DNA of 64,000 nucleotides from Gordius albopunctatus. Its lineage: Eukaryota. This document shows positions 1 through 35,349 of this stretch, in pieces (within the stretch, counting starts at the first letter, position 1; each line of letters begins with the position of its first letter). The stretch lies in NCBI GenBank assembly GCA_964276515.1, contig OZ193909.1, positions 12,834,001 to 12,898,000 on the forward strand, in the 5' to 3' direction. A model generated the notes under the pieces. The model did not search any database, was not told the DNA's origin, and saw only the letters and a list, made by a program, of their open reading frames with translations. The translations under genes were made by a program, and so were the position numbers.

Positions 1-1957
1 GAAGGTAAATTCGCGTGTTAATCTCACAAGCGAACCCACGAGCGGGGACGTAGGATCCGGAATTATCCCAAGCCTCGTCAAACAACACAAAACGCTCTTT
101 AAATGGGGAAAAACTAGCATTACCAAAAAGCCCACCGGGAAGATAGATATAAAGACATCACGACTAAAACCACACCCGCTGATGTCAGAATTCACACTGA
201 AAGTCGCGTTCGAAGGGTTCAAACCTCCCCTAGACCTGCCACTTATACGGCAGAACGGAGGCTTGTTCAAGCCCACTAGAAGGAAGTACATTTCAAAAAG
301 GACGCCAAGCTACTTCACCGCAACGAAAGAAGAGGCCGTTGTATCCGAGACGCAAGCGCTCGCCATCACGTCCTCCACCTTCTTCATAGCCAAGAGCAAT
401 GGGGACGCCAGAGTAATCACCGACTTAGCTGAAGCTTCAAGAAACTTCAGGCACTTGCCGGTTAAGCTGGCTACTATCCCCTTGACGGCAAAATCTTTAG
501 CTAAAGCCAACTACGCTGCCGAAATTGACCTAAAAGCGGCTTTCTTTAGCATCCCCCTCCACAAAAATTACAGGAAATATTGCGGATTCAAGTGGAGGGG
601 AAAGTTGTACCAGTACAATGTCCTGCCAATGGGGGCCTCCTTCAGCCCCTTCGTACTACAAACAATAGTAGCGGACTTGGTCAAGGCCTCAGTCAAGAAG
701 TGCAACTACAATGTATATCTGGATGATATACTGATCTTCGACCAAGCAGAAGACGACGTCACGACAGACTTAGGGAACATCGCCGAGATGGCTAAAGACT
801 GGGGCCTGACGATCAACGTATCCAAGTCCTCGATACTGCCCGAAACAGAGCTGGATTACCTAGGCTTACGACTGGACTTTGGCGCACACAAAATCAAATG
901 CGCAGAGGAGACGAAAGCAAGGCTCGTTCATGCTGGGGACATCTTATATCTCTTCTTGTCAACAGAAGCTCCGCCAACGGACTATACGTTGTTAGAAGCA
1001 CTGGGCGTGATGAATTATTTTTTCTACAACCTGACGGGAATGCCTAAACAATTCTCAGCATTTTACTCCCTGTCAACAGGGAAAGGAACGGCCCATGATA
1101 GACCATTAGCACACGGGAAACTAACAGGTTGCCTGGCCCTGCTCCACCTAACCATACCGCTATACCATGAGCACGATAAAACCATCTACGCTGACGCGTC
1201 CGACACCCATATTGGCATATCTTTGAATGACGAGAAATTCTCCGTGACGTTTGAACAAGCGGCCGAAGCAATAGGGCTAGACTGGGTAAACACAAACCAC
1301 ATAACCGCCTCGGAAAAGGTAGCTGCGATCTACGCGTATTTGGTAGCGTTTCACAATGGGGCCTGCTACTTAAAGGTTATCACGGACTCCACCACAGCTT
1401 ACTTCGTGCTGAGGAAGGGAGGATCGAACTCCCCCGTAGTGGAGAAAATTATAGCCAGTTTTGTGGCCACGTACAACGTCTCACACTTGCTCAGGCTACA
1501 CTTTAACCTGGGCTGGATTTCAACAACGTAAAACCCAGCTGATGAGCCATCACGATGCTGGATGCCCAAAGACCGCAATAACGTCCCGGCCAACGTAAAC
1601 GATGAATCGTTCGACATACCCGACTTAGAGAATATCGAGGAAGAAATCGACCTGGGATTCTGGGAAAACGAAAATGTTAGCGGGGAAGAAGGGGAAAACA
1701 GAACAAACCCCATAGACACGTGACCAAGTCCTATATAAACGCGCACCGAACAATCACTCGCTCTTTTTCCTTCGCTCATCATATTTGCTCCCACGTTCAT
1801 ACGCATTTTGCCCCCTTTACTTTTACTCTTACGATTTACCCTAAAATTTTCGTTTTTTATATCATATATGGTGTAGAGTAAAAAACAATAAACGTTCCTG
1901 GTAGAACAATAGCGAAACCAGGGGATCTGGAGGAAGGGCCTAACCCTTCTTGCAGAT
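1..1957 (+). mobile_element. Retroelement copy 1 (hepadna-like/DIRS-like RT-RNase H); 5' part lies outside the window
   Basis: Frame open from base 2 through RT (IDLKAAFFSIPL, LPMGASFSPF, YLDD, GLTINVSKS, YLGL) and RNase H (YADAS, ITDS). After TAA at 1529-1531 the same frame continues NPADEPSR to TGA 1721-1723. A TATA-containing repeat (1730-1850), AATAAA (1887-1892) and terminal hairpins follow. Confidence 0.85.
2..1723 (+). pseudogene. RT-RNase H polyprotein of copy 1, with one premature stop at 1529-1531
   Basis: ORF 182-1531 has an in-frame upstream extension (KVNSRVNLTSEPTSGDVGSGIIPSLVKQH) matching the N-terminal domain of copy 2. The stop lies just before NPADEPSR, where copy 2 has a Leu codon. 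Confidence 0.8.
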
Positions 1958-2010
1958 TAATTAATTGGCCCTTCCTCCAGATCCCCTGGTTTCGCTATTG
2001 TTCTACCAGG
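1897..2010. repeat. Perfect 44-bp inverted repeat with 26-bp spacer at the tail-to-tail junction
   Basis: cctggtagaacaatagcgaaaccaggggatctggaggaagggcc at 1897-1940 and its exact reverse complement at 1967-2010. It extends imperfectly to 1883/2024. Confidence 0.95.
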
Positions 2011-2231
2011 GGCGTTTATTGTTTCTACTCCATGTTATATATATTATAAAAAGCGAAAATTTCGGGTAAATCGCGGAGCAAAAGTAAGAAGGGGGCAGAA
2101 TGCGTATAAACAAGGGAACACAATAATATAAGCGTAGGAGAAATTCGAGCGAATAATGGCGATGGTGTGAATTTGGTTTATATAGGGCACGGTCACGTGT
2201 CCCAGGGGTTTTGATCTGTTCTCCCCTTGTC

Positions 2232-4796
2232 CTACGCTAAGTTTTCGCTTTCCCAAAAGTCTATGTCGATATCTTCCTCGATGTTGCTTAAGTCGGGCAG
2301 GCTGAAGGATTCGTTGGCGAGGTTGCGATCTTTATCCATCCAACATCTCGAGGGTTCATCGGCTGGATTCAGTGTTGTCGAGATCCATCCTAGATTGAAA
2401 TGCAGCTTGAGCAGGTGCGAAACGTTATAGGTGGCCACGAAGCTGGCCACGATCTTTTCTACTATAGGGGAGTTCGAGCCCCCTTTCCTTAGTACGAAGT
2501 AAGCCGTTGTCGAGTCGGTGATCACTTTAGGGTATTGAGCACCGTTGTGAAAAGCCACCAAGTAGGCGTAAATTGCTGCCAACGTTTCCGATGCCGTTAT
2601 ATGGTTCGTGTTGATCCAGTCCAACCCAATGGCGTCAGCTGCTTGGTCGAACGTTACCGAGAACTTCTCATCGTTCCAGGATATTCCGATGTGCGTGTCG
2701 GATGCATCTGCGTATATAGTTGCGTCGTGTTCTTGGTACAGTGGAATCGTGAGGTCTAGTAGCGCTAGACACCCTGCTAATTTTCCTTGTGCCAAGGGCC
2801 TATCGTGGGCCGTACCTTTTCCCGTTGTTAAATAGTAAAATGCGGAAAAGAGCTTGGGCATTCCCGTCAAGTTGTAGAAGAAGTAATTCATTACTCCCAA
2901 CGCCTCCAATAATGTGTAGTCTGTCGGGGGCATATCCGTTGAAAGGTAGAGGTATAAAATGTCTCCAGCATGGACAAGCCTCGTCTTGGTTTCTTCCGCG
3001 CACCTGATTGTGTGGGAGCTGAAGTCGATCCGAAGGCCCAGGTATTCTAGCTCTTCTTCTGGTTGTATGGATGACTTAGACATATTGATCGTCAATCCCC
3101 AGTCTTTCGCCATCTCGGCGATGTTTCCTAGATCCGTTGAGACGTCTTCCGCCTCTTCGGCGAAGATTAGGATGTCATCTAGGCAAACGTTGTAGTGTCA
3201 CTTTTGAAATGAGGATTTGACTAAGTCGGCCACTATCGTTTGTAGTACGTATGGGCTAAACGATGCTCCCATCGGCAGTACGTTGTACTGGTATAATCTT
3301 CCCCTCCACTTGAAGCCGCAGTACTTTTTGTAGTTTTTGTGGAGGGGAATGCTGAAAAAGGCCGCTTTTAGGTCGATTTTTGCAGCGTAGTTCGCTTTTG
3401 CTAGAGACTTGGCTGTCAATGGGATGGTAGCCAATTTAACCGGAAGATGTCTGAAGTTTTTCGAAGCTTCAGATAGATCGGTAATCACCCTGGCGTCCCC
3501 ATTGCTTTTAGCTATGAAGAAGGTGGAGGACGTGACGGCGAACGCTTGCGTCTCGTAAACAACGGCCGCTTCTTTCATAGTGGTGAAGTAGCTTGGCGAC
3601 CCTTTCGAGATGCACCTCCTCCTAGCGGGCTTGAACAAGTCTCCATTTTGCTGAATTCGTTGCAGGTCTAGGGGAGGTTTAAACCCTTCAAATGCCACTT
3701 TGAGTGTAAATTCAGACATTAGAGGGTGTGGCTTCAACCGTGATGTTTTGATATCAAGCTTCCCTGTTGGTTTTTTGGAGATGCTTGTTTTACTCCATTT
3801 GAAGAATGTTTTATGTTATTTAATTAGGCTTGGGATAATCCCCGAGCCTGCATCCCCGCCTGTTGGTTCATTGGTGGGGTTGATCCGTGTGTCTACCTCC
3901 GCCGGCGGTTTAGAATGTTCTTGTGGTGGTGTGTGCGCAGGTTGGTCAGTATCGTCGATTGGCGCTGGGGAGAATAACTTTCGGCGGGTTTCCCTTAGAA
4001 AGTCTTTGATAGCCTTCCACCACTCGGGAGATTCCTGGCCTTCGTCCCCATTGAGAGTCAATTCGCCCGAAGGCCCGTACTCCCAACGACGGACCGTTTG
4101 CTTACGAAGTTTACGAACGCGGGGCAGGGGCCGCGTTATTCTTGAAGTGTCGGCCCGGCTTACTGCCTCGGCTCCTGCCAGCGCTTGTAAAAACGATTTC
4201 TTAGGGGATTTGGGGACAGTCACGTCCACGTTCTGGAATCCCATTTGTGAGAGCCATGTGGTGTCATGCCTTATGGCCGTGGCCAAGTTAAACTTTATAG
4301 CGAGGCATAGCGTCTTTAGCTGCTTGTCGTGGGCTGCCAGGACTTCCATGGCTAGGATGGCGTATTTGGCCTCATGCCTATCTCTTTTTTGGACTTTTAT
4401 GTCCGGGTCTATTAATAGGTCGCTGAGCCCTTGGGTCTGCTTGGCTATGTCCTCGTATATCGCTGTCGGCGTTTTGGGTTGATCCGGCGCAGGTACTATT
4501 TGTACCGTAGATGGCATTTGGGGCGGTGGTGGCGCCAGCGGAGTTGGTTCTTGCCTTGCTAAGGAACCAACTACCGAGAGAGAAATTTCTAGCATTTCTC
4601 TCATGGCATTTCTCTGCCTTTGATTCGCTCTGGCCGCTTCGGCGTTGTTCCTCGCTTGCTCCCGTTGAAATTCCACCAATTGTGCTATCAACTCCGTTGG
4701 GCCTGCACCGGGTACCCCTGGTATAACAGGGCTCAACGGAGGACTGGCCATGGATTGCTCCCCTTGGTTCCCTCCACTTTTTCCGGTTTTAGGCAT
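2232..4796 (-). pseudogene. ~855-codon single-frame protein: coiled-coil/Pro-rich/basic N-terminal domain + RT + RNase H
   Basis: ORFs 3816-4961, 3198-3737 and 2232-3113 share one frame and are separated only by TAA (copy 1 has CAA at 83-85) and TGA (copy 1 has TGC). The catalytic motif reads CLDD instead of YLDD. Confidence 0.8.
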
Positions 4797-4815
4797 ATAT
4801 GGCGGAAAAGGTGAA

Positions 4816-4942
4816 AAAATTTTAGGGTAAATCGTAAGAGTAAAAGTAAAGGGGGAAAAATGCGTATGAACGTGGGAGCAAATATAATGAGCGAAGGAAA
4901 AAGAGCGAATGATGGTGATGGTGCGGTGCGCGCTTATATAGG
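4816..4942 (-). promoter_or_regulatory. TATA-containing terminal repeat, putative promoter of the retroelement; homologous to 1730-1850 (+) and 2056-2186 (-)
   Basis: cctatataa followed by ~120 bp of pyrimidine-rich sequence ending gatttaccc(t/g)aaatttt in all three copies; it lies just upstream of the ATG. Confidence 0.7.
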
Positions 4943-5077
4943 ATAATTGGTACAGATACAAATTTCAACGAATTTTGACTAAAACTGCATACAATACCAG
5001 CAGTTGGTTTATCCCTACAAGAATGCAGTTCTTATAGCTTCAAAAAATGAAATTAAACGTAAATAACTTCAACTAAC

Positions 5078-7990
5078 CGGAGCTATGCTGGTAAAAGAGG
5101 TGTATGCATCATCCGCACGAACGTGTTCATACATTTTGGATAGGGCCCTAGCCCTAAGCCAACCCCAAGGCCGACGCTCGTATAAATTAAGGCACCAATT
5201 GGCTAGGTCTAATAACTTAGAATGCGGCGTGTATACATCGCCCGGATCTACGTTATTCCTTTGAGCAGACCACACTACACCATCGTAATTCTCTAAACTA
5301 CCGTACAGCTCCTTCGAAAGATTGAAAAATAAAGGATATTAATTATTCATTGATCAATTAATGTCAAGTATTTAACACAATTATATAATGCAAATAATAA
5401 TCAATTAGACGAATCTAATGATATAAAATGGAAAAAATAATGTGTGGCATCAGAGACCAGAAAAGCCGTGGTAAATTTAGATTTTCGGAGGGGCCTCATC
5501 ATAGGGCACCATATCAAGGCTTGAGAAATTTGAGCTTACTCAATTTTTTTCTTATTTTTTTTCTTATTAAGTTGACACGTTTTTATTTGGTTGTAAAATA
5601 TTTAATAATCTCAGTTCTTAGCAAAAACATCAATATTTTTTCGAAATTTGGATAGTTCATAGGAGGGTTTGAGCGGGTTCAGAAGGGCAATTTTGTTATA
5701 AAATTGAGCCAGAGTGGACTTGGGCAGAAAAATTTAAACAAATTAGACCTTTATATGCGCAATGTTAAAACCTTACAGCACTTTAATAAAATTGTATTTT
5801 GCATTGAATATAAAATAACCTACTTTCCTCAATTCCAGTATAATGTCTGGCAGGGCTGGGCAGCCCTTTTTACCTAAGGCTATCCTGTGTCCGTAACAAT
5901 AAGCCATAGGCAAGTACAGTTGCCTGCAATGACACCATATTCTCGAGGGATGAAAGGGTAAGGCTTCGGGCACGCACCTAGTGTTGGTAAACGGCTAAAC
6001 TTTAACCAAATCTATATAGAATACAAGCCGCATGACGCTTAAGTTAGGACCCGGGCCGGGCCCAGGCTCGTAAATTTTTATAAAGGGCGGATCGACTGAC
6101 CTTAAAAAGCCCGTTGCAGGTTTCTAGTTTAAAGTGTGTTAAAATAGTTCATGTTGATTTGGCCAAATTCTAATCAACTAAACAATATCAAGGGTTAAAT
6201 TCAAACAATAGATTTAGCAATCGAGACAAAATGATTTTACACGAAGGAAAGGAAGGCTTAGGTTAAAAAAGAAGCCATATGGTATACGATTACTAAGGTT
6301 ATAACCTTAATTTAAATATGGCTGGGTAAATCTGGAAATTCATTCAAAAACAAAACGTTGTCATGGCTTTTCCCTGAGGGCTTGCCTTGGGTTCGGGCTG
6401 GCTCAGCAGACCGAACCCGAACCCGTTATTGCAACATTTTTTTTCGAAAAACTCCAAATAGTTGTGAAGAATAATAAGTAAAGGAAGTTTTAGCTGAATG
6501 TCAATCCTAGCAATATACCACAATTCGGGGAACAGAGTGTTCATCCCGTCATACTCGTATAAGCCTATCAGGCTAAGCAAGAATTTGGCCCAGGCTGGGA
6601 CCGCAAGTGCAACTAGCTCCTCATTTTGTAAATCTTTTTGGTTGAGTGACCTGTTTTTTGAAGGTAAATTATATATAAGACTAAAAGTAATGTGCCAAAC
6701 TGCTTTATAAAAATGTAGACTAAAATTTGTCATTTGAACTTAAAAATTGACTTAACATCCTTACTTCAATAATCTTATTTAAATCATATCAAATTTAATA
6801 ATACACAATCAAATTAATTTTATGAAATAATTAAATATATTATATTTTTAATGTTTATTATAAAATTAGTTAAGGGGGTTTTAATGAAACAATTATTATT
6901 TGATTTGAAATTAAACATCTATTTATAATAAATATTTATGTTTTGTCTAAATGTTTTATTATATATGTTTTAGGAGGAACAAATTAAATTATTGATTAAC
7001 ATGGGCTTTGATAAGTGGTATAACTACCTTTATTCCTCTAAACAAAGATTTTTTAAACATTATCTATGCCAATTATCATTTATAACAATCTCCCCAAATC
7101 ATAGCTATAGACCAATCAAGAAATTAAAGTAAAAATCATTCAATTTGTTTTAAATTAATGGATAATTAATATGAATTAAAATTTAAAGAATAAAAAATAA
7201 AAATGTGGCATACCTTGAATTGGTAGAAGATTGATTTTTAAGGTAAATAAGAGAATCCACCAAAACTTTATCATCAGATGAAACTCCTAGCAATCGCAAA
7301 CACACATAATAAAGGATTGTTGTAAATCGATAGGACTCATCAGAATCATTATTATCCTGAACACCGAGATGATGAAAATTCCAACCACCTCCGGGATATG
7401 CAACATTTTTAATATAACAAATGATTGCTTTCTTGTAAGCATTAAAGCTTACATCAAAGATGTTATCCTGATCATTATTTAATTTACCTATAATTTATAA
7501 CAAAGGCTTTAATTGTCAACATTTTTTATTAATTTTATAAATAAGTAAAAAAAATCTAAAACACATTTTGCAACAATATAAATTAATTTTATAAATCCAA
7601 TTAATGTACCTTTATGGTGATAAACAAAAAATTGTGTAAATAGAGCACAAGGTATCAAAAAGTTAGGTCCACTATAATCACCAGGCCAATGTCCTGAAAC
7701 AGGACATTGAAATATACTAATAAAATCAATAGCCTTTTCAATACATATCGTGATATTGTGATAGGCATTCTCATTTTCATATTTTTCCTTAAAATAATTT
7801 GACAAGTCAGTTCCTAAATGATATCTTTCAAGTAAAGTTTGATCATTGGATAATGCATTTTCATCAAAATACCAAGTATACTGTTCATTTGTTAATTTTA
7901 ATTTCCATTTCTCAGGGTTATTAAGCATGGTAAATGCTTTATTTTTGCTTACATTTGATTTTCGAAAGGATTTCCTTTTAAGGCTAATTA
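5078..7990 (-). CDS. LSS: Lanosterol synthase / oxidosqualene cyclase, 5' exons (about 7990-7611, 7488-7215, 6640-6515, 5980-5822, 5311-5078); 3' exons presumably left of the window
   Basis: Colinear motifs GHWPGDYSGPNFL, GGW, YVCLRLLGV, AVPAWAKF..MNTLFPELW, HPSRIWCHCRQLYLPMAYCY, WSAQRNNV..YTPHS and YEHVRADD match the LSS N-terminal half. AG/GT boundaries flank exon 5311-5078. Confidence 0.9.
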
Positions 7991-9739
7991 AATATCTTAA
8001 TTAGGTATTCAGAAAATTGATAAAAACTACCGAGTATTATTTGGTTTATAAAATATTTGAAATAAATTTAAGGATACATACGCTACAACTACAATTAAAA
8101 TTAAAACAATCATATTTGCTATATTTCAAATCATGTGGCTAAATATGGAGTTGCCATTTATATACATGGACAATTTAATACTGTAAAGTCAATACAGTTT
8201 GATCACACGCTAGGCTGACTAGAGGGTACCGACGGGCTTTGAACAAAAATATTTAACAGGCTGGGATCGGGCGCATTAAAAAAGTTTCAAAACGGGCTCG
8301 GGCCTAAATTCTAGTAACGGGTCATAAAATCTATATTACAAATTCTAAATATGAATTCCTAGTATTTAAAACAAAAAATAATTATGACCAAAAATAATTT
8401 ATTGATCTTAATCCTTATATTAAACTGGAAATTGTGTATATTTATTTAATTATTGCACTAATTTAGGAAGATTTACATTTAACTTTAATATATTTAGCTT
8501 TTTGTGCTAAATTCATTTTCAAAAAGCTGCTCATATTTTACATTATTTTTTATTATGGGCCTACAATCTTACATAATATTTTAAAGTAGCTTCTCTATTT
8601 TAAAGCTAAATAGAAAAAGTTTAAGATTTTTAATAATGCATTTCAAAATTAATGTATAAAATGGTAGCTAATTAAATTTAGTATTTTAAAGGTTTGCAGC
8701 TTAATTGACTTTCGACAATATCCAAAAATTAAGATTAGACTTAGAAATAACTGGCACAACTATGGACGTCTGGATACCTAATTACACAATGATCTTTAAC
8801 GCTAAGCATTCATTCGAATTTATATATAATAACCTTCGAAAAAGTCTTTTTTACACAATTTTAATAAAAAAAATTAGGGTATAATATTAAAAATTTGAGC
8901 AAAATTTTGGTAATAATATTTTTTACGCATCAGGTGTGGATTATCGTTAAACTCATCAGAATAGTAATCTCATCTCGTCTCGGGTGCCATTATGAGAATC
9001 TCTGTCTTGCTTCCTCTCGGCCTAGAACAATCTCGATCTCGTCTCAAAATTTAAAAAAAATTATGCAATCTTATTATCCCCCCTAATTTATTTAATTATT
9101 AAATAAACAAAAAATTTAAGAAAATTTAATTGGAGATCCATTTTTTTAATTCAAAAATTTTATAAGCATGTCATTTACATATTTTAACTAGCTAGGTCCT
9201 TAGTTAGCATTGGCAAAATTTAGTAATGCCTTTAAATAAATAATTAACCAGAATTGTAGCTATCTGATATAACCGTCATCAGTTCGTTCCTAAATAATTT
9301 ATTGCATGTTTATTATATTGTAATAGAAACCTAAAAGATACGAGTGGATACTTTTTATCATTGTTCATAATATGTGCAATTAGTTGAACACATTACAACG
9401 TTATAATAACACCAATAAAAGTAGCATTGTTACTGGAGTAAGAACATAAGTGTTCTGAGGTTTTTTATAAATTATTTATAAATATATAATTTTTTGACAA
9501 ATACTTTTACATTTAAAAAGTAAACGATTCTATTATAGTGTAGGCACATATTTGTTCCAAAATATTGGCTCGAATTTTTTTTATACTTTTGCCATAAAAT
9601 TTTATTAAAGCTTATGCACATAGATTCTAGTATATTGAAAAATTTCCATATTTAAAGAAAATTAGTGGATTTGAATGCACCTGCCACATTCCAAAACAAA
9701 GGGATAATGCAATTTATGGAGTGAGAATAAAAAAGGGAT

Positions 9740-9880: not shown

Positions 9881-11392
9881 GCCAAATTTATATACTTATT
9901 TTTAATTAACCACCGATTAATCACATAAGTAAGGACGATGTAATTTTTGCAAAATTTGAAAAAGCTTTTCAGAACTTATTTTAAGCCTATATGTTTATAA
10001 CCAATATTTTTGAATTTTCCGCATGGTTAAGGCAACAAACTCAAAAAAACGTAAAAACTACTAAACAGAGCAAGGAAAACAACATTTTAACTCAGGACTA
10101 ACAAGTCATAGATTGTTGAGAAGAATACTGAATTATTAAACAGTTAAAAAGGTCTTTTGACCATTGTGATAGCAAAACTAGGAATAGATTCTAAGTTAAA
10201 AGTGGCAGAAAAAGTTGACCAGATGCTTACAAAGATGAACATGTATAAAGCGGTGGGACCTGATAACATACCTAAGGTTTTAAAATGTTGAGGTTTTTTA
10301 AACAAATTACTTGCAAGTGGTAGGAGCTTGGTAAATGGAAGGAAAGCTATAAAATAAAGGGAGATGTACAAGAGTGTAATAACTATAGGGGGCTTATAGA
10401 AATCAAGCCAGCCCATATATTAAATGATTTGGAGCTAAGAGCAATTAGCCATTGACAAACGGCTAAACGACAATTAACTATTCACCCACCCACCTTACAT
10501 ATAGTAAATAGAAATACATCTAGTGATGAGGGTTTGCCAAAAAAATACAGTCGAAATTGTATAAGTGAGAATCGGATAAATGCAAATATTTATAAATGAT
10601 AAATAACCGCAATTTTTTAAACACATTGCCTAAAATTTACGTTAAATCTACTTATAAGTGAGAATTGGTTAAATGCTTAAAATTCGATAGACTTCTAAAT
10701 TATTAACAATATACAAAACACAACTACGCTTGCTTCTAATAATTTTCATATCTGCCAATTTATTAAGGTTTAAAATTTGTTTACTAAATCCGTTTCATTC
10801 CACCCCAACTTTTAAACTCTTATACTCAAATTATAATGATTTTGAAACTGGCTTCCCTCAACACCCAAACACTAAAAGAACCAGGAACCTTGCAGGCCCT
10901 TATTTAGTTGCCTCCCACCACAAAATCCATATTTTTTGTGTACAACAGACTAGATATTCACAACGCAAAGTTCTCCCCGTTAACGAATATAATTTTTATT
11001 CCACGGACTGCGGCCTAGATGCAACAGGGGTAGGTATTCTTATGAAAAGGGACCTCAAAGTGGTTAGCATCGACTAATCATTCACTTAAAAATAAAAAAT
11101 CGTTTATCAATTTTTAACATATACGCTCCCCCCTCTTCCAAAAATTCTCAATCGATGGAATCCCTCCTCCAAAACATCACAGATAAATTTAAAGCTAAAC
11201 ATCTTAATATCCTCGTCGCTGACTTCAATGCCTCCGTCCAGCGTTCATTGTGTGATAATAATTTAATAATTGGCCCTAATTCGATAGGGCCGACTAACCG
11301 AAACGGTAAACTGCTTAAAAAATTCTGCTACAAACACAAACTAAAGATAACCTCAACTTTTTCCGACCTTCCTTTAGATAACCTATTCACAT

Positions 11393-12830
11393 CAGAGGTC
11401 AGATTTGTTGGGAATTTTCTGCCCGAACCCGGCCCGATTCAATTTTTTAACTTCATTGCCCGCCCGAACCCATCTAAGTGTCCGCCGGAGCCCGCCCGAA
11501 TTGTTAAAGCTGCCCGAATTGCCCGGCCCGAAATGTTAAATTTGCCCGTTAGTCCCGAATTTATGAGGTCCCAAAAAGAGGTCGGAGTAGTTAAAATTTT
11601 TCTGCGCGAACGCGGCCCGGTCAAAATTTTTAACTAAATTGCCCGCCTGAGCCCTTCTAAGTGTCGGCTCAGCCATGCCCAAACCATTAGAGCTGCCCGG
11701 CCTGATTAATAAAATTTTCCCGGTAGACCCGAAATTATCCAATCCCAAAATCTTTCAACCACTATTACAAAATAAGCATTAAATTAATGGCATATTGATT
11801 CAAACAAAGATGACAATATTTTATTATTCATATCGTGGACAATTTCCGGGGATAATCTTGTGCGTCTTTCCTCTATTAATCTTCCTGCGATAGAAAAACT
11901 TCCTTCACTAGCAGCACTCGTCGCCGGGATGGCAAAGAGTATTTTTGTAAACCTTGCTAATTTAGGATACCTAAAATAGTTATAATTTTTAATAACTTTA
12001 ATGTGACTTGTTTGCTTTATTTTTCCACCGTGTTTTTTTAGTTGTTAAGAAATTAAATGAATTATAATTATGCGCATTGTTAGAAAATGGCATGAGCCTT
12101 TGTTTTAAGTCTAGACGGCACACATGTGTAGTGTATTGCGAACAATGAAATGGCTTTGGCTACATAAATATAAAAAATCCAATACTTTCCATAATGGAGT
12201 AGGGCAAAGATTTAACTGAACGCGATAAAAATGTAATAAAATAATTTACTACCAGAGAGTAAAATGGTTTCTTCCATAGTATTAGATTAGAGTAGCAGTT
12301 TACAGGGGCGTAGCCAGCATTAAAATTAGAGGGGGGCAATAATGATTTAGGGAGGGTCAAAATAATCATTTTTTGAAAATTTAGCCATAATTTTAATACA
12401 TTTTAACAAATTTTTGAGTTTAGAGGGCGGCAGCTTCCCTTTCCTGCCCCCCCCCTTGTCCACGCCCATGGCAGTTTAAATCGTTGTGATTTTATTCTTT
12501 TATAATATAATCTGAAAATTAAAAATTTTTGATCTTGAGACAAACCAGTTAAACTAATTTATTCGAAATAAAATTTAATTTTGAAGAAATTGAAATTAGG
12601 ACGGTTTATAAAGGTACAATGAAGATTTAAGCGATGGAAAAAAATCTAGTCAAATTTATTATGGCCCAAAATTGTTTATAAGCGAATTTTTCTTTTTTCA
12701 AGGAAAATTAATTTGATAAAATTTTGGGCATGCCCGAATTGTCCGAATCTTATCAGCGTGCCCACCCGGGCCCGCTGATAATTAAAATTTAAGGCAGTTG
12801 CCCGGGCCGGGCAGCGGGCCGGGCATTTCT
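11393..12830 (-). mobile_element. hAT-derived non-autonomous element inserted in the LINE endonuclease region
   Basis: Starts cagaggtcagattt and has gcccg-rich subterminal repeats. Minus strand 11830-11970 encodes YPKLARFTKILFAIPATSAASEGSFS, a hAT dimerisation motif. A related end occurs at ~57690-57705. Confidence 0.7.
12303..12470. mobile_element. hAT-type MITE (CA(T/G)GGGCGTA family)
   Basis: Imperfect TIRs and 8-bp TSD gcagttta on both sides. Confidence 0.8.
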
Positions 12831-15744
12831 AAGAAACCACAAAATGATAAAGAACTTCCACACCATTCAGCCCAGAGACCAGATTTGTCCGGCCCGGCCT
12901 GCTGCCCGAACCTGCCCGCCATCAAATTTAGGTAAGCCTTCCAGTATTAACTTTTATCCAATATCTGAGCTTCCGTATTACTTATAATTTATTTCTCTGT
13001 ATGAAGTTTAAATTCGCATTGGATAGTAGTCTAGGGCCTAGATAGGCGTCGTCAATTCAAATATATCAAGGTATGGACTTACCCCTTCCCCACGCATTTC
13101 TAAAAAAAATATACGTTATTCTTACTAATATTCCTTCTCAATGGGTGGTCCTGACTTTATATCTCTCCCTCCTACCACTTACCCCCCCCCCCTATTCTAA
13201 CGATGAAATTAATTGCGAGCTCAAGACGAAAAGGCTACTAATGTTGTATAAGACACTCACTTGGGAGGTGTATGCTTTACTTTTACCCCCCACCCCCTCC
13301 TCTTCTAGGGTATTCGATATGTGCAAAACAAGGAATAGATACTCTAACTTATTATTCTCCTCTCATCGCTCCCGGAAGATTTCTGACGGCACTACCGTCA
13401 ATACCCAACTATGAAATTAAAAATAAGTCGGAAAAGATGGGCTCACCATTATAAATAATATATTTCCCCACCCCTCTACAAATAAGAGGTAGTTATTAAT
13501 AACCAGAAATCAATTTGCCCGAACAAATACTTGCTAAAATGCTATAATATAAAAAATACAAGGCCGGTGACCTTCACCTCCCGCTCCCCTCTGGAGCGAC
13601 TCTATTCTTTAAACTAATATATTTTCTACTGCTCAAATCCTTCCGGAATTGATATCGCTTAAATACTAGTTTACTCTAAAAATAAGAGTGATTTAGTTCC
13701 ATTCTAGATCGCCCTTATTCAATCCCCTGTTCCGACATATTCCTTGAATTCATTAACAACTTCAAAACACCCTCCACCCCTTCTATCAGTGTTGAACCAC
13801 CCTCCTTAAATGAAATAAAATACCTGTTAAAATCCCTCAAACTTCATAAAGCTCCCGATGCAGAAAAAATCACAGCGGAAGCCCTTAAAGCTGATTACTC
13901 CCTGTCTAGCAAACTATTGCATCAACTCTTCACCAAAATCTGGCTACAAGAGATCATCCCCTGCGCTTGGTCTACTGGTCTACTTAGTAAAATCTATAAA
14001 AAAGGAGACCCATCCCTTCCTGATAATTATAGAGGGATCACAATTATAAATAACATTTCCAAGGTTTTTATAAAAGTAATATATAGGAGGATATATCCAT
14101 TCATTGACGATAATTTAAAAAGTAACCAAGCCGGCTTCCGTAAGTCCAAAACCACAATTGAACACATCCTGACCCTCAAAAATATTATTGACATCTCCTC
14201 TAAATCTAAATCTCCTTTAGTCCTAACATTTGTCGACATTCATAAAGCTTTCGACTCCCTATCCCACCTTTACATATGGGAATCTTTATGTCTACTAGGA
14301 ATCCCCAAAAAAATTATTAGACTTATCTTCTTTCTGTACAAAGACATGAAAGTGGTCATAAAACATCTACACCACCGCTCAAACCCAATCCAAGTCAATT
14401 TAGGAGTTAGACAGGGATGTCCATTATCTCCTCTACTATTCATCACGGCAATGGATCTCATAATTAGGAGATCCACCCTTCCTTACGACGGTATCCACAT
14501 GAACGGCATCAAAGTGTCTTCGCTGCTATTTGCTGACGATTTATGCATCATATCGGATTCAACTCTCAAAACTCAGAACTTTGCCGATAGATTCGTCTTA
14601 GAATCCAAGAAAGCCGGTTTAATAATTAACCCTAACAAGACTAACTTACTATATATTAACATACCCTCCCAAAATACTACATTGTCTATTAGCAACACTT
14701 TAATCCCTTTTTCAGATTCAATAAACTACCTAGGAGCAAATACTCCCACCAAGATGCCTCTAATAAATTATCTAAAGCTCTAAAGAGTTTTTATTCATGC
14801 TATTCAATCTGGAAATCCAAAGAACTGGCTCTACCGACCCGCCTTCGGCTGTTCAAAACCACCATATTGCCTATATTGCTCTATGGATGCGAAACATGGT
14901 CCCTCAAAGGTTCGACCATAAAAGCGGCCCAAACTAAACTAAATAAAATGCTCAGAATAATTTGTAAAATATTCTACCCTGAAGTAATTAGCAATCCAAA
15001 CCTCTGGACCCTTTGCGAAATCCCTCCCATAAAAAACATAATTATATCACGGAAATGGAACTTCCTAGCCCACCAGACCAGACGCAATGGACTCAACATT
15101 TGCTTAAGAGCAATTCTATGGAGACCCCCTCAACTAAAAAAACTAAAATGTCGAGGTTCCTGGATCCACAAAACTTTTTTTGGAACTCCGCTCTCTTAAC
15201 CACGAATGGAATACTATAATCCCCATAATGCAAAACAGATCCGCTTGGAAAGCCTTTTCTGCCTCCAATTTCCCTTCAAAATATCCCCTCCCAATCGCCT
15301 CAACTTCGAGCTGTCTCTGAAGCCTACAACATCCAAAATAAATAATCAGATCTATCCCTGAGACAGAGGGCGACCCATAAACTAGCTAACCACGGATAGA
15401 TACTTTCTTTCCACACCATCTAACCATGAACCCGAATCTGACGCACAAACTAGCAAGCAATGGAAAGCCTGCAAGTCCTCTTGCCAAAATAAGTAATGGT
15501 GGTATCTTATATTTATATGCTTATACTATTGTACTTGTACTATTATCTTGCACGGTCTACTTGTACTTTATTGCTTCCGGCGACTAAAAATACTGATCTT
15601 CGCTTTAACATACTAACACACTAACCTACTAACAACTGAACACGTAACCTCTGGTTAGCGTGGCCCGAGAAGCACCTATGGTGTCAGATGGGACTCAATC
15701 TTAGCTTGCCGATTTAGCTAAGCTCTTGTTTGTCATCGGGGCTT

Positions 15745-16224
15745 ATACATACATACATACATACATACATACATACATACATACATACATACATACATAC
15801 ATACATACATACATACATACATACATACATACATACATACATACATACATACATACATACATACATACATACATACATACATACATACATACATACATAC
15901 ATACATACATACATACATACATACATACATACATACATACATACATACATACATACATACATACATACATACATACATACATACATACATACATACATAC
16001 ATACATACATACATACATACATACATACATACATACATACATACATACATACATACATACATACATACATACATACATACATACATACATACATACATAC
16101 ATACATACATACATACATACATACATACATACATACATACATACATACATACATACATACATACATACATACATACATACATACATACATACATACATAC
16201 ATACATACATACATACATACATAC
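15745..16224 (+). repeat. (ATAC)~120 microsatellite forming the LINE 3' tail
   Basis: Perfect repeat directly after the conserved terminus cttgtttgtcatcggggctt. Confidence 0.95.
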
Positions 16225-19200
16225 CTCTATGGATGCGAAACATGGTCCCTAAAAGGCCCGACTCTAAAAGCTGCCCAAACCAAACTAAATAAAATGCTAA
16301 GAATAATTTATAAAATATTCTACCCTGAGGTAATTAGTAATCCAAACCTTTGGACCCTTTGTGAAACCCCTCCCATAAAAAACATTAACATCACGGAAGT
16401 GGAACTTCTTAGCCCACCAGACTAGAAGCAATGGACTCAACATTTTCTTAAGATCAATTCTATGGAGACCCCCCCAACTTAAAAATATAAAATGTCGAGG
16501 TTCCTGGATCCACAAAACTTTTTCTGAACTCCGCTCTCTTAACCACGAGTGGAATACTATAATCCCCATAATGCAAAAGAGATCTGCTTGGAAAACCTTT
16601 TCTGCCTCCAATTTCCCAACAAAGTATTCCCTCCCAACCACCTCAACTTCGAGTAGTCTCTCAACCCTATATCATCCCAAATAACCGAGTATGACGCCTA
16701 AACTAGCTAACCATGAAGAGCCACTTTCTTCCCACACCATCTATTTGTGAGCCCGAGTCCGACGTCCAAACTAGCAAACAATAGGAAACCTGCAAGTCCT
16801 ATTTCCACAATTCCAAGGTATGTATGTATGTATGTATGTATGTATGTATGTATGTATGTATGTATGTATGTATGTATGTATGTATGTATGTATGTATGTA
16901 TGTATGTATGTATGTATGTATGTATGTATGTATGTATGTATGTATGTATGTATGTATGTATGTATGTATGTATGTATGTATGTATGTATGTATGTATGTA
17001 TGTATGTATGTATGTATGTATGTATGTATGTATGTATGTATGTATGTATGTATGTATGTATGTATGTATGTATGTATGTATGTATGTATGTATGTATGTA
17101 TGTATGTATGTATGTATGTATGTATGTATGTATGTATGAATGTATGTATGTATGTATAATCCCTGATGACAAACAAGAGCTTAGCTAAATCGGCAAGCTA
17201 AGATTGAGTCCCATCTGACACCATTGGTGCATCTCGGGCCACGCTAACCATAGGTTACGTGTTAAGTTGTTAGTAGGTTAGTGGTTAGTATGTTAAAGCG
17301 AAAATCACTATTGTTAGTAGCAGGAAGCATTAAAGTAAAAGCAAAAGCATATACATGCATGCAACTACTAAAAGCATATAAATAATAAGGATACGATTCT
17401 CCCTTGAGACTGTGGTAAGATGAAGGTCAAGGGCTCTCCATGTTTCACTAGTTTGGGTGTAGGATTCGGACTCATTCTCATGGATAGATGATGGTATGGG
17501 AAGATAAGTCGTTTCTCTTCCTCACGACAAAGAGTTTCACAAGAACTTTGTGGATTTCAGTTTGCTAAGACGTTTTTTCCAATAGTTGCCGAGGCTTGTT
17601 GATTGAGGTGTCAATGTCCGCCCTCGTTAGCATAAAAAGGGGAGACAAGGATGGAGAGGGAGAAGGGGGAGGGAGAAAGAGGAAAGTAATTAAGTATAGG
17701 CCAATATCAAGATTATATACAAGATGTCTTTTTTGCTAGATAGTTATTGTGATCAATAAAACCGTTATAGTCGATGGGGAATGGGGAGAGGAAAAACTGA
17801 CACAATAGCACTATCGATCATAGAGGGACAGGATGAAGCGTTAGACTAAGAACGTGAGCAAAATTTTAGAAATATATACGGGACAGGTAGACCATGCAGA
17901 GCCCGAGCGAGAACAAAAAGAATAAAGTAAATGTTTCTAGTGGGATTTGGTAGACCAGCTCGATCTCAAGCCCGAAGCTCAAATTTTGAAGTACAATTTA
18001 CTTCATAGACAAATATCAATTCGGGGAGGCGATAACGAGACGTTATTATTCTGAGAGCTACTTCGAGAATATTTATATCGAGGGGCAATTGTGTGTTTAA
18101 TATACATGTGTGGGGAGATAAGTAAAATTTAAATCATAGTTGATAAGAGGGAGAGCAATTTAAGCAGTACCTTAAAAATTTTTTCATAAGGGAGTACGTA
18201 ATGGGTAAGAATATTTAGGAAGGAGGTAAAGAATAATGCTTGTGAGTGGTTAGATGCAAAAAAAACTCAATATTTTAATTTAACAAATATCAACAAGGTT
18301 ATGAGAAAGGAGGAGTAATGTGACAAGTATAATGACATTGGGCTTGGGCATGGGCATGTCAAAACAAGCTTTAACTTTGCTACTTTGACACAGTTCAACA
18401 ACACAATTATGAATTAAATGAACATACTTATAATTATAAATTCAGGAAAGTTAGATTTATTAGAAAAGCTAAAGAAAATGTGATATGGGCATTTGGATCA
18501 AAATTTTTAATATTAGTTGTACATGACAAATTAGATTTTAGAATGTATTGTTCAAATTTGAAATATATAATTTTATGAAAGTTTGTGATTGATAAAACCA
18601 AGATGTTTGGTACAAATCTTTTTATTTACTTATTTATATAACAAAATTAAAATTGAAGTTAAGATAAGGTCTGGTTAAGAATTTGTATGTTAAATACAAG
18701 CATAGGAAATTTTACTAAAATAAATATTGCTTCAAACACAGTATTGACTTTAAGATAAAAATAATTCACTGTAGTTAATAGAGGGTTTGATATCTAAGGC
18801 CTAAAAGAATAACAAAAGCAAATGGGTGTAGCTAGGATTAAAATTAAGACATTATACCTAGGGACAATAATGATCTAATGTAGAGGTATTTTGGGTATAA
18901 GCTCTGTAGAGATAGACTTATATTTACTTTTATTCATATAAAACTAGACAAATAAAAAAGATTGTAAGGTCACATATTTCTTATTAATGTTGACATGAAA
19001 AAAATATAATAACTTTAACAAAATGAAGCCAGAGATTTTAAGACCACTTTCTTAAGTAAATAGGATGTTTTGGGACACCATTAAAAACAATATTGGCTGA
19101 TTTTTAATAAACATTTTAAAGTTCATAAAGTGAAGTTAGATAAAAATACAGATTTATGTGAAATGATTATATGTAAATTGATACGTAATAATAAGGTTAA

Positions 19201-21783: not shown

Positions 21784-23732
21784 TCTATATAAAAAAAATC
21801 TAAGTACCGTTTTTTTTTGTGCGCTAATAACTTTTGAAGTTCTCAACCGATTGCCACCAAATTTGGCCAGATTATTGCCTTAGCATTGTAGATGGTTTGT
21901 AAACACTTTTTATCACACTATGACAGCGGGAACCATGTTTTTTAATTTGGTTGGCGCCATCTAGCGGACGTCAGCTCAACGCTTATCTCGATTATTATTT
22001 TATGTTAGAGTTGTGCTCATAGTTTTAAATGTTTTTCTACTAATCTTTTGTCACATATTTCACTATTTTTATTCACCTTTGGGTTATTTTTTACATTATA
22101 TATATATCTGTTACAACTAAATAATTAAAAACCGTAGAACATCAAAAATTTTATAATATAAAAGAGAAGCGTTCTCTGTTAAAGGTTTACGTATTTGAAC
22201 GTTTATCTAAACATTTGACGTGAAAATATTGTTATAATAATTTAAATTCTCTAAGTCTCAATTGCTATATATATTTAGCCTAAAATTCTTTTGTCTCTTT
22301 AGTTTTTGATTAGTTTTACACTCTGTACTTTGCTGTGCACATTTCACCACCGACTCATTTTATCCTACTGTAAATAAATACAAGCAGCTTAGAGAAGGTG
22401 CAATACCTACTATTTTTTATTTACCAGATCATCTCCAAAAGGTAATTGATTTAAGTTACACATTTAATCACTATAATATAGAAGAAACGGCCAGCTAAAA
22501 AAACTACAATGAATTCTCTGTGCACATTTCACCACCGACTCATTTTATCCTACTGTAAATAAATACAAGCAGCTTAGAGAAGGTGCAATACCTACTATTT
22601 TTGCTTTACCAGATCATCTCCAAAAGGTAATTAATTTAAGTTACACATATAATCACTAGAATATAGAAGAAACCACCAGCTAAAAGAACTACAATGAATT
22701 CTTTAGCCAGCCCACTTCAAGATATTACAAATAATTTCTCCATATGTTGCCTTATATTTCTGAAAAGTCTAAACCCAAGAACACAACACATCATGCATTA
22801 GAAACAACTGAAATCATTGCTGTTCAAGTAACCTTAACAATTTTATATTAGAAATATTTATTCTAACCTGTTATATATTTAATCATTCCAAACTAAGAGC
22901 ATTTCTATGATATTTTTTACCCCACATTTAAATTTGTTATATCTTTTTAACCATATTTTATTAAAACTTCAAACTTTAAACTTATCTTTGTAAAATACTA
23001 TTGAATGTTTTTAATACATAGGGAATTTAATAATTTTTTAGCATACAAAGTTTCATTTAATGAAAACAAGCTTTACTTTAAAAAAAACTCGACCTATTTA
23101 TGTATTTTTAATTTTCTTGGTATATTGACTTTAGATTCATGCGCCCCAAAAGAAAATCGATTGGACGGAGGACACGAAATGCGAATCTAATGCGTAGAGT
23201 GCGTACTCTTGGGCTTGAAGATGAACTACAACAGTATACAACTCTGCCTCAGCCACCCGCACGTGCTCAGTCATTACCCGCAGGCAACCGCCTAGCATTT
23301 TCTTACCCATCTAATATTGAAAGTTTACGTCGCCATGTTCTCATTGGTACTATGTCTATTGTGTGTCCTCATTGCCATGCCTTGAAATTTGCTGGAGAAA
23401 CTACTGGAATGTGTTGCGCAGCCGGAAAAGTTAAACTGCCTCACCTTGCAGAACCGCCTGAGCCATTACAAACATTGCTGGCTGGTTATACAACTGATTC
23501 TAAATATTTTCTATCTAACATCAGGAAATACAACTCCTGTTTCCAAATGACGTCGTTTGGCGCTGATGTTGTAACCACACAATTCATGCCTACATTCAAG
23601 GTAAAAGGCCAAATTTATCATAAAACCATTATTTCATACATGACCCCCTTTTAGATAAGTCTTATTAATAGATTATACTTATTTAACCACTTAAGGACTG
23701 AGTCAAAGCAACGCTTGGCCGGGCACAGCTAG
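21784..23732 (+). mobile_element. Internally deleted Helitron of the same family as 30210-36311
   Basis: A|TC 5' end, 3' end gcaacgcttggccgggcacagCTAG|T, and ORF 23139-23654 matching the N-terminus of the RepHel protein. Confidence 0.9.
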
Positions 23733-27157: not shown

Positions 27158-28395
27158 CTAAATGGAATGTTCTTTTGGTAGTGATAAATTAATGTGTATC
27201 CAAGGGTAGAGGGGTACTCTTCCCATATCTTCATTTAAAGTGGGGTTAAGTCTTCTAATAAAGAAGGACTCTAACGTCTTCCTTTCAAAATATGATTTTG
27301 TAAAAAGTAGAATTGATTGTTTAAGTTTTGACGTATGATTTTTCTTTAAAATGTGGTTAGATACTCCTGTAGGTACGCCGTTGGGGCGAAATAAAGCTGC
27401 CAAGTGTTCTTTAAGCCTAACTCTTAAGTCTCTTTTTGTTTCCCCAATGTAAAACTGGTTGCAATCACTACAAGTAATTTTATAGATAACGTTATTTGTC
27501 TGTAAATCGGATTCATAGTTATTTTGTAATATTGTTAAGAGTGATTTATTAGGTTTTTGTGTGATAATGATGTTATTAATATTATTCCTTTTTAAAATTT
27601 TTTTAATGCTTTTTAAAAATGTAAATGGTAACGATGGGTGATGCGGAAAATGTATAAATGTTTTATCATTAATATTTTTTTTGCTTATTTTCAGTTAAAA
27701 AACATTTTTTTAGAATATTATTGAAAAGTTGATTTGGATATCCAAGAGAACAGAATGTTTCATATAAATAAACCATTTCTTTAATATATGCGGATTGTGA
27801 AGACGATAAATGAATTGCTCGATTAATAAGCCAGCTTAAAGTATTGACTTTAAAAGTGAAAGGAGTAAAACTATTAAAAGGAATATAGTTCAAACGTGAT
27901 TCCGTAGGTTTGTGATAAACCTGAGTATGAAAAATATTTTGATTTCTGGTAATTAAAACGTCCAGAAAAGGCAAACATTGATTCGTTTCAATTTCAAATG
28001 TAAATTTTATGTTAATATGAAATGAATTTAATAGATTTAAAAATTTATTTAAATCATTATCTAAGTTTTGATTCCAAATTGCAAATATATCGTCAACATA
28101 TCTACACCAAAAAGGTGGAAAGGAGGGAAGTTTTGATAATTCATTTTCTAAATGTGATAAAAATATATTAGCGAGTACAGGGGCAATAGGCATCCCCATA
28201 GCACAACCATCAATTTGGTCATAATTTATATGATTGAATTTAAAATTATTTTTTTGTGTGCAAAATAATAATAATTCTTTAAAAATATTTTCCGGAAATG
28301 GTAAACTATCATTTTCTTTTAATTTATTTACACAAATATCAATTGTTTCCACTATGGGAATCTGAGTAAATAAATTTTTTACATCAAAGCTGATC
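27158..28395 (-). mobile_element. Penelope-like element, 5'-truncated (RT + GIY-YIG endonuclease)
   Basis: SFDVKNLFT, GCAMG, RYVDDIF, LPFLDVLI, VYHKPT, then NVIYKITCSDCNQFYIGETKR..RLKEH at ~27400-27495. Confidence 0.9.
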
Positions 28396-30744
28396 TTGCC
28401 TTTTCTGGGCCTTTGGTAGCCAAACGCAATTTTTGTGTTTGTTACTGGTGGGGTCACCCTATAGGCAAGGTTCTTGGTGAATGGTCAGGTTAAAATTTCT
28501 GGGCTTTTTGAGGGAGTACTAGTGAAATGGAAGTGCTAGATTAAGCCCATCATACGAGTGGTCTAATGAAAAGTTTAATTCACCAAAATGACGGCATCAT
28601 AAAGAATAGTAGGTAGTCAAGTGCCAAAATCTAATAAAGTTCCGTCAGGCTTGGAAGGCCGGGATATCAATACTCCCTCATTCCATATAAACCAAAATGT
28701 ATACTATGAAAGTTCGTAATAATGAAAGTAATGAAAGCGCTAGGGCGTCCTCCGTAAATGACGCGCATGATAGGCGCCCGTATCATGTCAAAAGTCAACG
28801 AGGGTCACTACATCTTCCGCAAACGGATATAGTTAAAGAAACTAGTTTGCTAAGGACGAGATTGAGAGTGGGCTAGCTAATTGTTGGAACGATAACTGCA
28901 AAATTCCGAAAAGTTGCTGACACCCTCAGCAAGCGACGGGTCGATATAGCGTGTATATAGGAAACAAGATGGAAAGCGCAAAAAGGCTATAAACTTTACT
29001 TCAATGGCCTAGAAATGAATAAATATGGCGTGGCAATTTAGCTTCCCATCTACAAGATAAAGTCATTGAAGTACAAAGAAAAAGTGGGCGACTCATGATG
29101 TTGAAACTATGCATAGAGGGTCAAATGATTAATCTAGTTTCTGAATATGCTCTGTAAACAGGATGCACAGATGAAGAAAAGGAGGACTTTTGGGAAGAAT
29201 TAGACGAAACGCTGCGAATGATACTCATAGCTGAGATAGTTATAATTGGAGCGGATATGAATGGTCACGTAGACAAAACAAGAGAAGGATTTGAACGGTA
29301 CCATGGTGGAAATGGATACGGAGCGAGAAACGATGAAGGCGACGAAATATTGAAAATAGCCGTAGCATTTGATTTGGCCATCACAAATACCTTCTTCAAA
29401 AAGAATGTAAATCACCTAATAACGTACAAAAGTGGAAATCGATCTTCGCAGATTGACTTCCTCCTAATATCAAGAAAGGAATTAAAGAATGTACGAGATT
29501 GTAAGGTGATACCAGGTGAAGCTATTGCAGCCCAGCATAGACTTGTTGTGATGGACTATACCATCTCCAAGGCTAAAACACAAAAGCCGAAGAGATTAAA
29601 TGGGAAAATCAAATGGTTCCGACTACCAAAATTGAAAGATATTTACAATGACCAAATAGTTGAAAGGCTGCAAATAGATGATCAGCAGAATGTTAACGAT
29701 ATGTGGAATAACATAGCTAACACGGTACGATCAGTAACGAGATGTGTTATATGAGAAGGTAAACCAGGTATACAAAAAGATAAGGAGACATGGTGGTGGA
29801 ACGAAGACGTGCAACGCCTGTTCAAGTTGAAAAGAAAGCTTTACAAATTATGGTCAGGCAACATAAATGAAGAAACACGATTGGCATATGCGAAAGCTAA
29901 AAACGAGGCAAAACGTTGTGTAGCCAAGGCTAAAACTAGTGATGGGGAAATAGCGTTTTTAAGGAGCTAAAGCTATAGTACATAGCACCCATATGCGGCT
30001 ATGTCTACTAGCACATAGTCACTTTAAGTGCTATAAGCTATAGGAGATGGGAGGTTTGAGGCGCTAGAGCTATGGGAGGTTTGAGATGCCATAAGCTATA
30101 GGAGATGGGAGGTTTGAGGCGCTAAAGCTATAGCCGATAGCACTTGAATGCGCTACTCCTATAGCACGGCGCTAACATTGAGAATGATTTTTTAATTGTT
30201 TATTAGATACCAGCTGTGCCCGGCCAAGCGTTGCTTTAACCTATTAATAAGACTTATCTAAAATAAGGTCATATATGAAATAATTTATAATGTGAAAGGT
30301 CCTAATGCTAATGCAAATAAATATCCATAATATTTATTGAAGAGCGATATAAAATATTTATTAATACATCTACAATGCTAAGGCAATAATCTGGCCAAAT
30401 TTGGTGGCAATCGGTTGAGAACTTCAAAAGTTATTAGCGCACAAAAAACGGGGATCCGTGGTATGAGGACATCTTCTCCAGTGAAAGGTCCAGTCAAAAT
30501 CTAATAAAAAGGGGAGAAATGCTAAAAGAAATATAAAATTATAGAATTTAAAAGGTGATTGATTATACGCGAGTAAAATCAATAGGCTTTAATGGTAATT
30601 GCTAAAAGTTATGAGTGGATAAATAGAAATAATACTAACTTTAATTATTCATGCAGAAAAGTAGTGAGGCGTTATAAAGAGGGTTGTAGGTTCGGGTAAG
30701 AGATGCTTCGCAGCTTAACTTCTTCCTTAGAAAGGAAGAAATTG

Positions 30745-35049: not shown

Positions 35050-35349
35050 GAATCTAAAGTCGATATACTAAGAAAATAAAAAATACATAAATAAATGGCA
35101 TTTTTTTAAAAGTAAAACTTGTTTTTATTAAATGAAACTTTGTATGCTAAAAAATTAATAAAGTAAAAATGTAGTGTAATAATAGTATAATGTTTCCCTA
35201 TGTATTAAAAGCATTCAATAGTATTTTACAAAGATAAGTTTAAGGTTTTAATCAAATATGGTTAAAAAGATATAACAAATTTAAATGTGGGGTAAAAAAT
35301 ACCATAGAAATGCTCTTAGTTTGGAAAAATATTTCTAATATAAAATTGT

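Follow-up and report, generated by a model that had tools for sequence, protein, structure and literature searches.

A multicopy single-gene retroelement of the hairworm Gordius albopunctatus with a hairpin-bearing 3′ end and a probable place beside the hepatitis B virus order

We analysed a stretch of 64,000 nucleotides from the hairworm Gordius albopunctatus (assembly GCA_964276515.1, contig OZ193909.1, positions 12,834,001 to 12,898,000 of the forward strand; hereafter the window), at the beginning of which two copies of a retroelement lie joined tail to tail at 1966/1967 (inverted match of 1,576 nt, 77% complementary). Copy 1 is truncated by the window start. Copy 2 lies on the minus strand and extends from the TATA box at 4943 over the ATG at 4796 and a single frame of 854 codons (stop at 2232-2234) to a second TATA box at 2187 and an AATAAA signal at 2015-2020. 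It is short of its last 26 nt and ends within the loop of the second hairpin of its 3′ region, where it is fused to copy 1. An earlier note on this DNA had described this order of parts with a distance of about 2.76 kb between the TATA boxes; order and spacing (2,756 nt) were borne out, whereas the frame is not intact. Copy 2 carries two in-frame stops and copy 1 carries one (Table 1), which were read through as X in the proteins used below. An alternative genetic code could be ruled out, as the three stops fall on different, non-shared codons. In the rest of the window no further copy and no match to the protein was found, except for one chance-level match of 22 nt.

Table 1. Positions of the element features in the window
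Feature	Positions	Strand	Remarks
Copy 1 reading frame (linker, reverse transcriptase, RNase H, acidic tail)	2..1723	+	cut by window start; in-frame stop 1529-1531
Copy 1 3′ repeat A, TATA box to about +138	1729..1866	+	CACGTG at 1717 just upstream
Copy 1 AATAAA	1887..1892	+	
Twin hairpin of 3′ segment B	1896..1958	+	fold z -4.63; both runs reach their greatest depth within the 3′ region here
Fixed 3′ end of the family	1959..1966	+	contigs diverge at 1966
Segment B of copy 2, ending inside the hairpin 2 loop at the junction with copy 1	1967..2024	-	AATAAA 2015-2020; inverted match 97%
Copy 2 3′ repeat A	2044..2187	-	CACGTG at 2194
Copy 2 RNase H domain, nackednavirus-like	2346..2729	-	
Copy 2 reverse transcriptase core	2997..3524	-	RVT_1, E 2e-24; in-frame stop 3198-3200
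Copy 2 N-terminal 326 codons	3819..4796	-	proline-rich, predicted coiled coil/helices, basic patch; followed by stop 3816-3818
Copy 2 5′ repeat A, TATA box to ATG, left element end	4797..4943	-	adjoins low-depth flank

The region from TATA box to ATG, repeat A, is about 147 nt long and recurs downstream of the gene. The two repeats of copy 2 had been taken for short direct terminal repeats. They are direct, unlike the repeats of DIRS1, and long inverted repeats are found only between the copies; however, over about 150 nt the 5′ and 3′ repeats of copy 2 agree at only 71% of positions, and the 3′ repeat is not terminal. Beyond it follows segment B, about 100 nt with the AATAAA, two hairpins and an AT-rich end. 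The 5′ repeat of copy 2 is more similar to the 3′ repeat of copy 1 (86% identical, 96% over a 101-nt core). The stability of the twin hairpin was reached by 0 of 200 shuffled sequences. No second segment B (B1) was found, B scoring no better than shuffles against the spacer at the gene end, the body or the flank. The tetranucleotide AATT is present at both element ends. Rfam gave no match at gathering level and no ribozyme; microRNA-like matches below this level were produced by the inverted junction and were discarded. Between 1931 and 1952 of the window, letter variants in other copies look stem-preserving in hairpin 2, and they are not linkable to single contigs.

In the read-through proteins of both copies the only significant Pfam match was RVT_1 (E 2e-24 and 7e-26), the reverse transcriptase (RT). 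Five other frames of 103-275 amino acids had no Pfam match, a methyltransferase was not found by Pfam in the frames of both copies, and no tyrosine recombinase is encoded in any frame from one end of copy 2 to the other. There is no overlapping envelope gene because the shifted frames over the RT region carry 8-15 stops each in both copies. The earlier observation that recombinase, integrase, protease, endonuclease and envelope frame are missing was thus confirmed by Pfam, the shifted frames and the five extra frames. The predicted structure of the copy 1 protein (pLDDT 71) matched RT, and its residues 390-509 were predicted to fold as RNase H (Z about 10, root mean square deviation 2.9 over about 100 residues).

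The N-terminal 326 amino acids matched nothing in Pfam, NCBIfam, the Atlas or by fold, the fold model of this part being poor (pLDDT 44), and found no sequence match among 96 hepadnaviral frames including core (best 7.3 bits). A terminal protein was not detected either: PF00242 did not match at E 0.5 and a terminal protein profile scored no better than 50 shuffles, whereas the P protein of a nackednavirus matches PF00242 at 1.4e-16. The similar size of protein and unit in hepadnaviruses and nackednaviruses, adduced in the earlier note, is consequently a coincidence of content, as the first third of the protein is no terminal protein. Its position and predicted helices suggest that this domain may be gag-like. 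Many variant sequencing contigs fall on the N-terminal region.

Over 522 codons compared between the copies, 265 of the 358 differences are at third positions, with nonsynonymous divergence (dN) of 0.08, synonymous divergence (dS) of about 2.2, which is near saturation, and dN/dS of about 0.04. The two copies therefore represent two lineages that diverged under purifying selection, as had been proposed from the mostly synonymous divergence.

The stretch is contained in two sequencing runs of one study, which are possibly the source of the assembly and not independent of it; no RNA dataset containing it was listed. On window positions 1-6000 the two runs yielded 774 and 469 contigs, mostly less than 95% alike. 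The depth summed over segment B reaches 82,686 and 8,419, compared with 536 and 118 in the flank; summed contig depth is not a copy number, but on a plain reading this is a family of many tens of copies. Per run, 5-7 contigs depart from the reference at 1966 into flanks that are unlike each other (agreement 0.49-0.55), and the hairpin-bearing 3′ end of the family is therefore fixed. The left end is joined to the flank in contigs covering 4884-5532 and 4858-5532 with 0 differences. A diverged member is represented by a contig of 2,821 nt with alignments at 2092-2270 and 2350-2530; assuming colinearity, its start would lie near 4828 at the boundary of repeat and gene, implying the same length from repeat to hairpin and no room for another gene. 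No joint of end to start is listed in the contigs of either run, which show presence, not absence. A tandem or circular 3′-to-5′ joint had been suspected from a TATA-like word in two of the four loose-end rows behind 1966; with no joint listed and an agreement of about 0.5 it is unproven.

A search of 1.84 billion proteins gave 14,004 matches at E<=1e-3. Of these, just three have an E value of 1e-30 or better, and each is a protein of the hairworm Gordionus (35-44% identity); the match after them has 2e-24. Two of the Gordionus proteins stop 11 and 90 amino acids past the RNase H motif, without a methyltransferase. A search for homologs of the whole protein returned nothing among 7,995 candidates, scans of viral contigs and metagenome contigs gave no locus of the element's clade, and pattern scans of viral contigs for Ngaro and tick HEART motifs were empty. 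Most of the top 150 matches are DIRS-type proteins; among 57 proteins scanned, 17 match Dam methyltransferase at E<=0.01 and three match the hepadnaviral C-terminal family. The motifs that the earlier note had put forward as evidence for a hepadnaviral relationship are all present, but they are not diagnostic: DIRS-type proteins contain DLKDAFFSIPI (P0004) and NPADEPSR (P0014), and an Anolis Ngaro element has PMG (supplement of PMC12691608).

The RNase H domain proved more informative. The RNase H of a rockfish nackednavirus P protein aligns motif by motif with that of the element. When 210 proteins were searched with an RNase H profile of the element's clade, this protein, the only nackednavirus tested and one that had been found by a profile containing hepadna-like rows, was the best match outside the clade with 39.8 bits (next 31.5). 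In the reciprocal search with the nackednavirus RNase H, the two copies and Gordionus scored 23.7-25.9 bits, among bird hepadnaviruses at 20-27 bits, whereas DIRS-type proteins had at most 9 bits. With the predicted structure the top viral Foldseek match was an unnamed entry of 634 amino acids, equal in length to the nackednavirus P protein. The modelled fold would thereby be closer to hepadnaviral P (TMq 0.46-0.48) than to ortervirals (at most 0.38), in a set of viral proteins only that cannot weigh DIRS.

Trees were calculated for RT alone and for RT and RNase H together. FastTree with 174 RT rows united the element's clade (support 97) with four unnamed RTs outside DIRS. In a more careful RT tree of 51 rows (4 of 55 dropped, having no anchor), in which the outgroup was not one clade, the element's clade received 100/97. 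The combined tree comprised 37 rows, 14 having been dropped including the retrovirus rows. In it the element, Blubervirales (the order of hepatitis B virus and the nackednaviruses) and eight unnamed RTs form a clade (97/91), DIRS stands apart (95/88), as do Gypsy-type rows (100/100), and the element's clade together with P0181 is sister to Blubervirales (86/82). With another alignment, from which 8 more rows, the long ones, were dropped, the values were 91/72 for the sister link, 91/86 for the wider clade and 97/97 for DIRS. Forcing the element's clade into DIRS was rejected by the approximately unbiased (AU) test on RT and RNase H (p=0.023, for a DIRS group named after the tree had been seen). 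When either the element's clade or Blubervirales was removed, the other remained beside P0030, P0032 and P0084 (quick trees, SH 83 and 85). Each group keeps its place without the other, which argues against a simple mutual attraction. The lineage is excluded from Blubervirales at 100/100 and lies outside the order in every tree, proto-nackednaviruses not being sampled. The phylogenetic check proposed in the earlier note was answered in part by the combined data, with a sister position to Blubervirales outside DIRS; RT alone gave no resolution.

Seven unnamed RT-RNase H proteins from metagenomes and Logan (P0030, P0032, P0084, P0025, P0079, P0058 and P0181) group with Blubervirales; they end 2-69 amino acids past the RNase H motif, and four match DNA_pol_viral_C. 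These proteins may represent a wider HEART- or VIPER-like radiation. One weak parallel to the element is the contig that carries the nearest metagenomic RT: it has clustered hairpins and repeats the tail of its gene in inverted orientation, and it has no recombinase-sized frame. 3′ of the P0181 RT gene (L014:1785-2331, L015:2141-2447) there are very stable hairpins, and 183 nt of the gene tail recur as an inverted copy (98%). In L015 a second structured end joins unrelated DNA. All of this comes from one assembly and may be an artefact.

By the features tested the element is not a member of Blubervirales, of DIRS/PAT or of the LTR (long terminal repeat) class. Judged from its sequence, the lineage probably belongs beside Blubervirales, most likely as a HEART-like sister of that order. 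The element is a multicopy single-gene retroelement, consisting of a helical domain, RT and RNase H without integrase, recombinase or terminal protein. We consider it an even chance, for the interpretation as a whole, that it represents an undescribed HEART-like lineage beside Blubervirales and that it is primed by its hairpin and inserted by host break repair. That both copies are still colinear despite a dS of about 2 speaks for this interpretation. The proposal of a hepadna-related lineage without integrase had already been made in the earlier note; the reasons given for it were weak, and moderate support now comes from the reciprocal RNase H match and the combined trees.

HEART retroelements reportedly go back to Gong and Han 2018. 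Like the element, they are genomic retroelements of invertebrates near Blubervirales (PMC12691608, PMC11551314, PMC12440569), and their mobilisation is described as 'not yet resolved' (PMC12440569). They differ in the RT motifs: by eye, and for tick rows only, seven HEART rows show YIDN/HLDN and PFG, whereas the element has two catalytic aspartates and PMG. LTR retrotransposons and Ortervirales differ from the element, which lacks protease, DDE integrase and identical LTRs. Penelope-like elements without endonuclease have a promoter-bearing repeat, possibly derived from another copy, and inverted tail-to-tail forms, as observed here; their difference is that the RT of the element is of the LTR/DIRS/hepadna class and that RNase H is present.

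A mechanism in five steps can be envisaged, with confidence falling from the first to the last. First, RNA polymerase II would start about 28 nt past the 5′ TATA box, giving an RNA that covers the frame and the second repeat as well as segment B. Second, the N-terminal domain would bind or package this RNA as a gag-like part. Third, because there is no terminal protein, minus-strand DNA would be primed where the 3′ end is structured, either through folding back or from a broken chromosome end, in place of priming by tRNA or protein. Fourth, RNase H would clear the RNA and the DNA would jump via repeat A onto the 3′ repeat of its own or another copy, restoring the TATA box; a jump onto another copy would explain the mixed ancestry of the repeats of copy 2. 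Fifth, the linear DNA would be end-joined into a double-strand break, sometimes as two molecules end to end. Hairpin priming, the jump at repeat A and end joining are put forward tentatively.

Several points weigh against this interpretation. The trees contain no rows of HEART, VIPER/TATE, Ngaro or proto-nackednaviruses. The RT-only tree is a polytomy of the lineage with DIRS and Blubervirales, FastTree places the hepadnaviruses elsewhere on a long branch, and the sister link to Blubervirales was never starred. The qualifications given above for the AU test and for the single nackednavirus belong here as well. In pairwise comparison DIRS-type proteins score highest (75-108 bits), followed by the nackednavirus (69) and the hepadnaviruses (14-33), and 13 hepadnaviral P frames rank last of 189 listed proteins by these RT-led scores. 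Pfam DNA_pol_viral_C, to which P0025, P0030, P0032 and P0084 have matches, is not matched by the proteins of the two copies at E 0.5, and with an RNase H profile built from hepadnaviruses alone these proteins of the window score only about 10.5 bits. As to the mechanism, AATAAA lies upstream of the hairpins, and if the RNA ends there hairpin 2 is excluded, yet the priming step needs it. The precise 3′ end would suit a site-specific, borrowed recombinase equally well. Finally, both copies in the window are broken.

Such a recombinase is the basis of the strongest alternative, namely that the element is a VIPER- or Ngaro-like split-repeat retrotransposon which has lost its tyrosine recombinase, still produces its cDNA itself and relies for integration on a recombinase supplied in trans. 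We regard this as possible, if rather doubtful. The order A1-gene-A2-B resembles the A1...B1-A2-B2 arrangement of VIPER, Ngaro and PAT (PMC6681497), in which, as in the element, the 5′ repeat recurs near the 3′ end, a gag-like region is present and protease and DDE integrase are missing. VIPER has a hepadna-like RNase H, as has the element, and this RNase H groups with hepadnaviruses (PMC6681497); the RT of DIRS-1 works in trans (PMC7192593). The fixed 3′ end and the AATT at both element ends would fit as well, and ranks 1 and 3 of the Atlas search are clusters with Euglenozoa as the commonest recorded phylum (three members each). However, the three groups differ from the element in having a recombinase, B1, identical repeats and three frames instead of one fused frame. 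No B1 was found above shuffle level, no recombinase in any frame, and the same short layout is kept in diverged members. Moreover, Ngaro RT motifs differ by eye, and union with DIRS/PAT is rejected by the AU test. If this alternative is true, the element connects hepadnaviruses, in an animal, with the retrotransposons that use a recombinase.

We think it unlikely that the copies are endogenised remains of a circulating non-enveloped hepadna-like virus whose linear DNA was integrated by end joining. A unit of about 3 kb whose promoter region occurs twice, numerous diverged lineages that are strongly selected, a compact RT-RNase H without envelope and RNase H motifs close to those of the rockfish nackednavirus are what such a virus would leave, and related viruses occur in rotifers (PMC12691608). 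On the other hand, the element has no terminal protein, matches none of the hepadnaviral frames compared, core included, and is excluded from Blubervirales. A circle would yield identical repeats, not repeats of 71% identity, and no circular joint is listed. Unlike nackednaviruses and proto-nackednaviruses, the element lacks a recognisable core gene, is chromosomal and multicopy, and has divergent repeats and an extra hairpin end.

A fast-evolving deletion derivative of DIRS/PAT misplaced by long-branch effects is very improbable: it would account for the DIRS-type majority among the best matches, the RT similarity of about 30%, the missing protease shared with DIRS1-like elements and the RT-only trees, but the AU test is against it, the placement is unchanged without Blubervirales, recombinase, Dam methyltransferase and DIRS-type inverted terminal repeats are lacking and diverged copies are colinear. 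The outcome that the earlier note had named as refuting its proposal, an RT nested in DIRS/Ngaro with longer recombinase-bearing copies, was not found for DIRS/PAT in the trees and frames analysed.

No description of the element or of any hepadna-like retroelement from hairworms was found in the literature, most subscription papers and Repbase lying outside the search; the family is apparently undescribed. Among animals, only elements of rotifers and amphipods were reported by a screen from 2025 that covered 5,500 animal genomes; it either missed the lineage or placed it outside its target clade. Hepadnaviruses are thought to derive from invertebrate retroelements, and the named candidates, HEART, are few and often mutated at conserved RT residues (PMC12440569). 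With many copies, mapped ends, a conserved hairpin terminus and strong purifying selection, the present family would allow priming before the terminal protein and spread without integrase to be asked about directly, and it may show the ancestor of the hepatitis B type before it became a virus. It is conceivable, though we would not press it, that the element is a sister of the hepatitis B order which has survived, was mobile until recently, is older than terminal protein and capsid, primes on its own 3′ hairpin and integrates without an enzyme of its own. In that case no such element with defined ends would have been known before, and it would belong to a larger, unnamed group of methyltransferase-free RTs from metagenomes.

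The remaining window contains features of other kinds. At 7509-8000 (-) lies an exon which we take to resemble oxidosqualene cyclase from its motif; it has no Pfam support. By eye, LINE-like and Penelope-like fragments were recognised at 11068-15199, 27158-28484, 29158-29754 and 36551-38092, a long four-base microsatellite at about 15700-17200, and stop-split Helitron-like Rep/helicase frames at 30745-35067 (-) and 23112-23654 (+). A long alpha/beta hydrolase frame at 45994-46941 (-) is similar to human ABHD14B (1imj, E 2e-27), in keeping with an animal host, and has a GC content of 0.48 in an AT-rich background.

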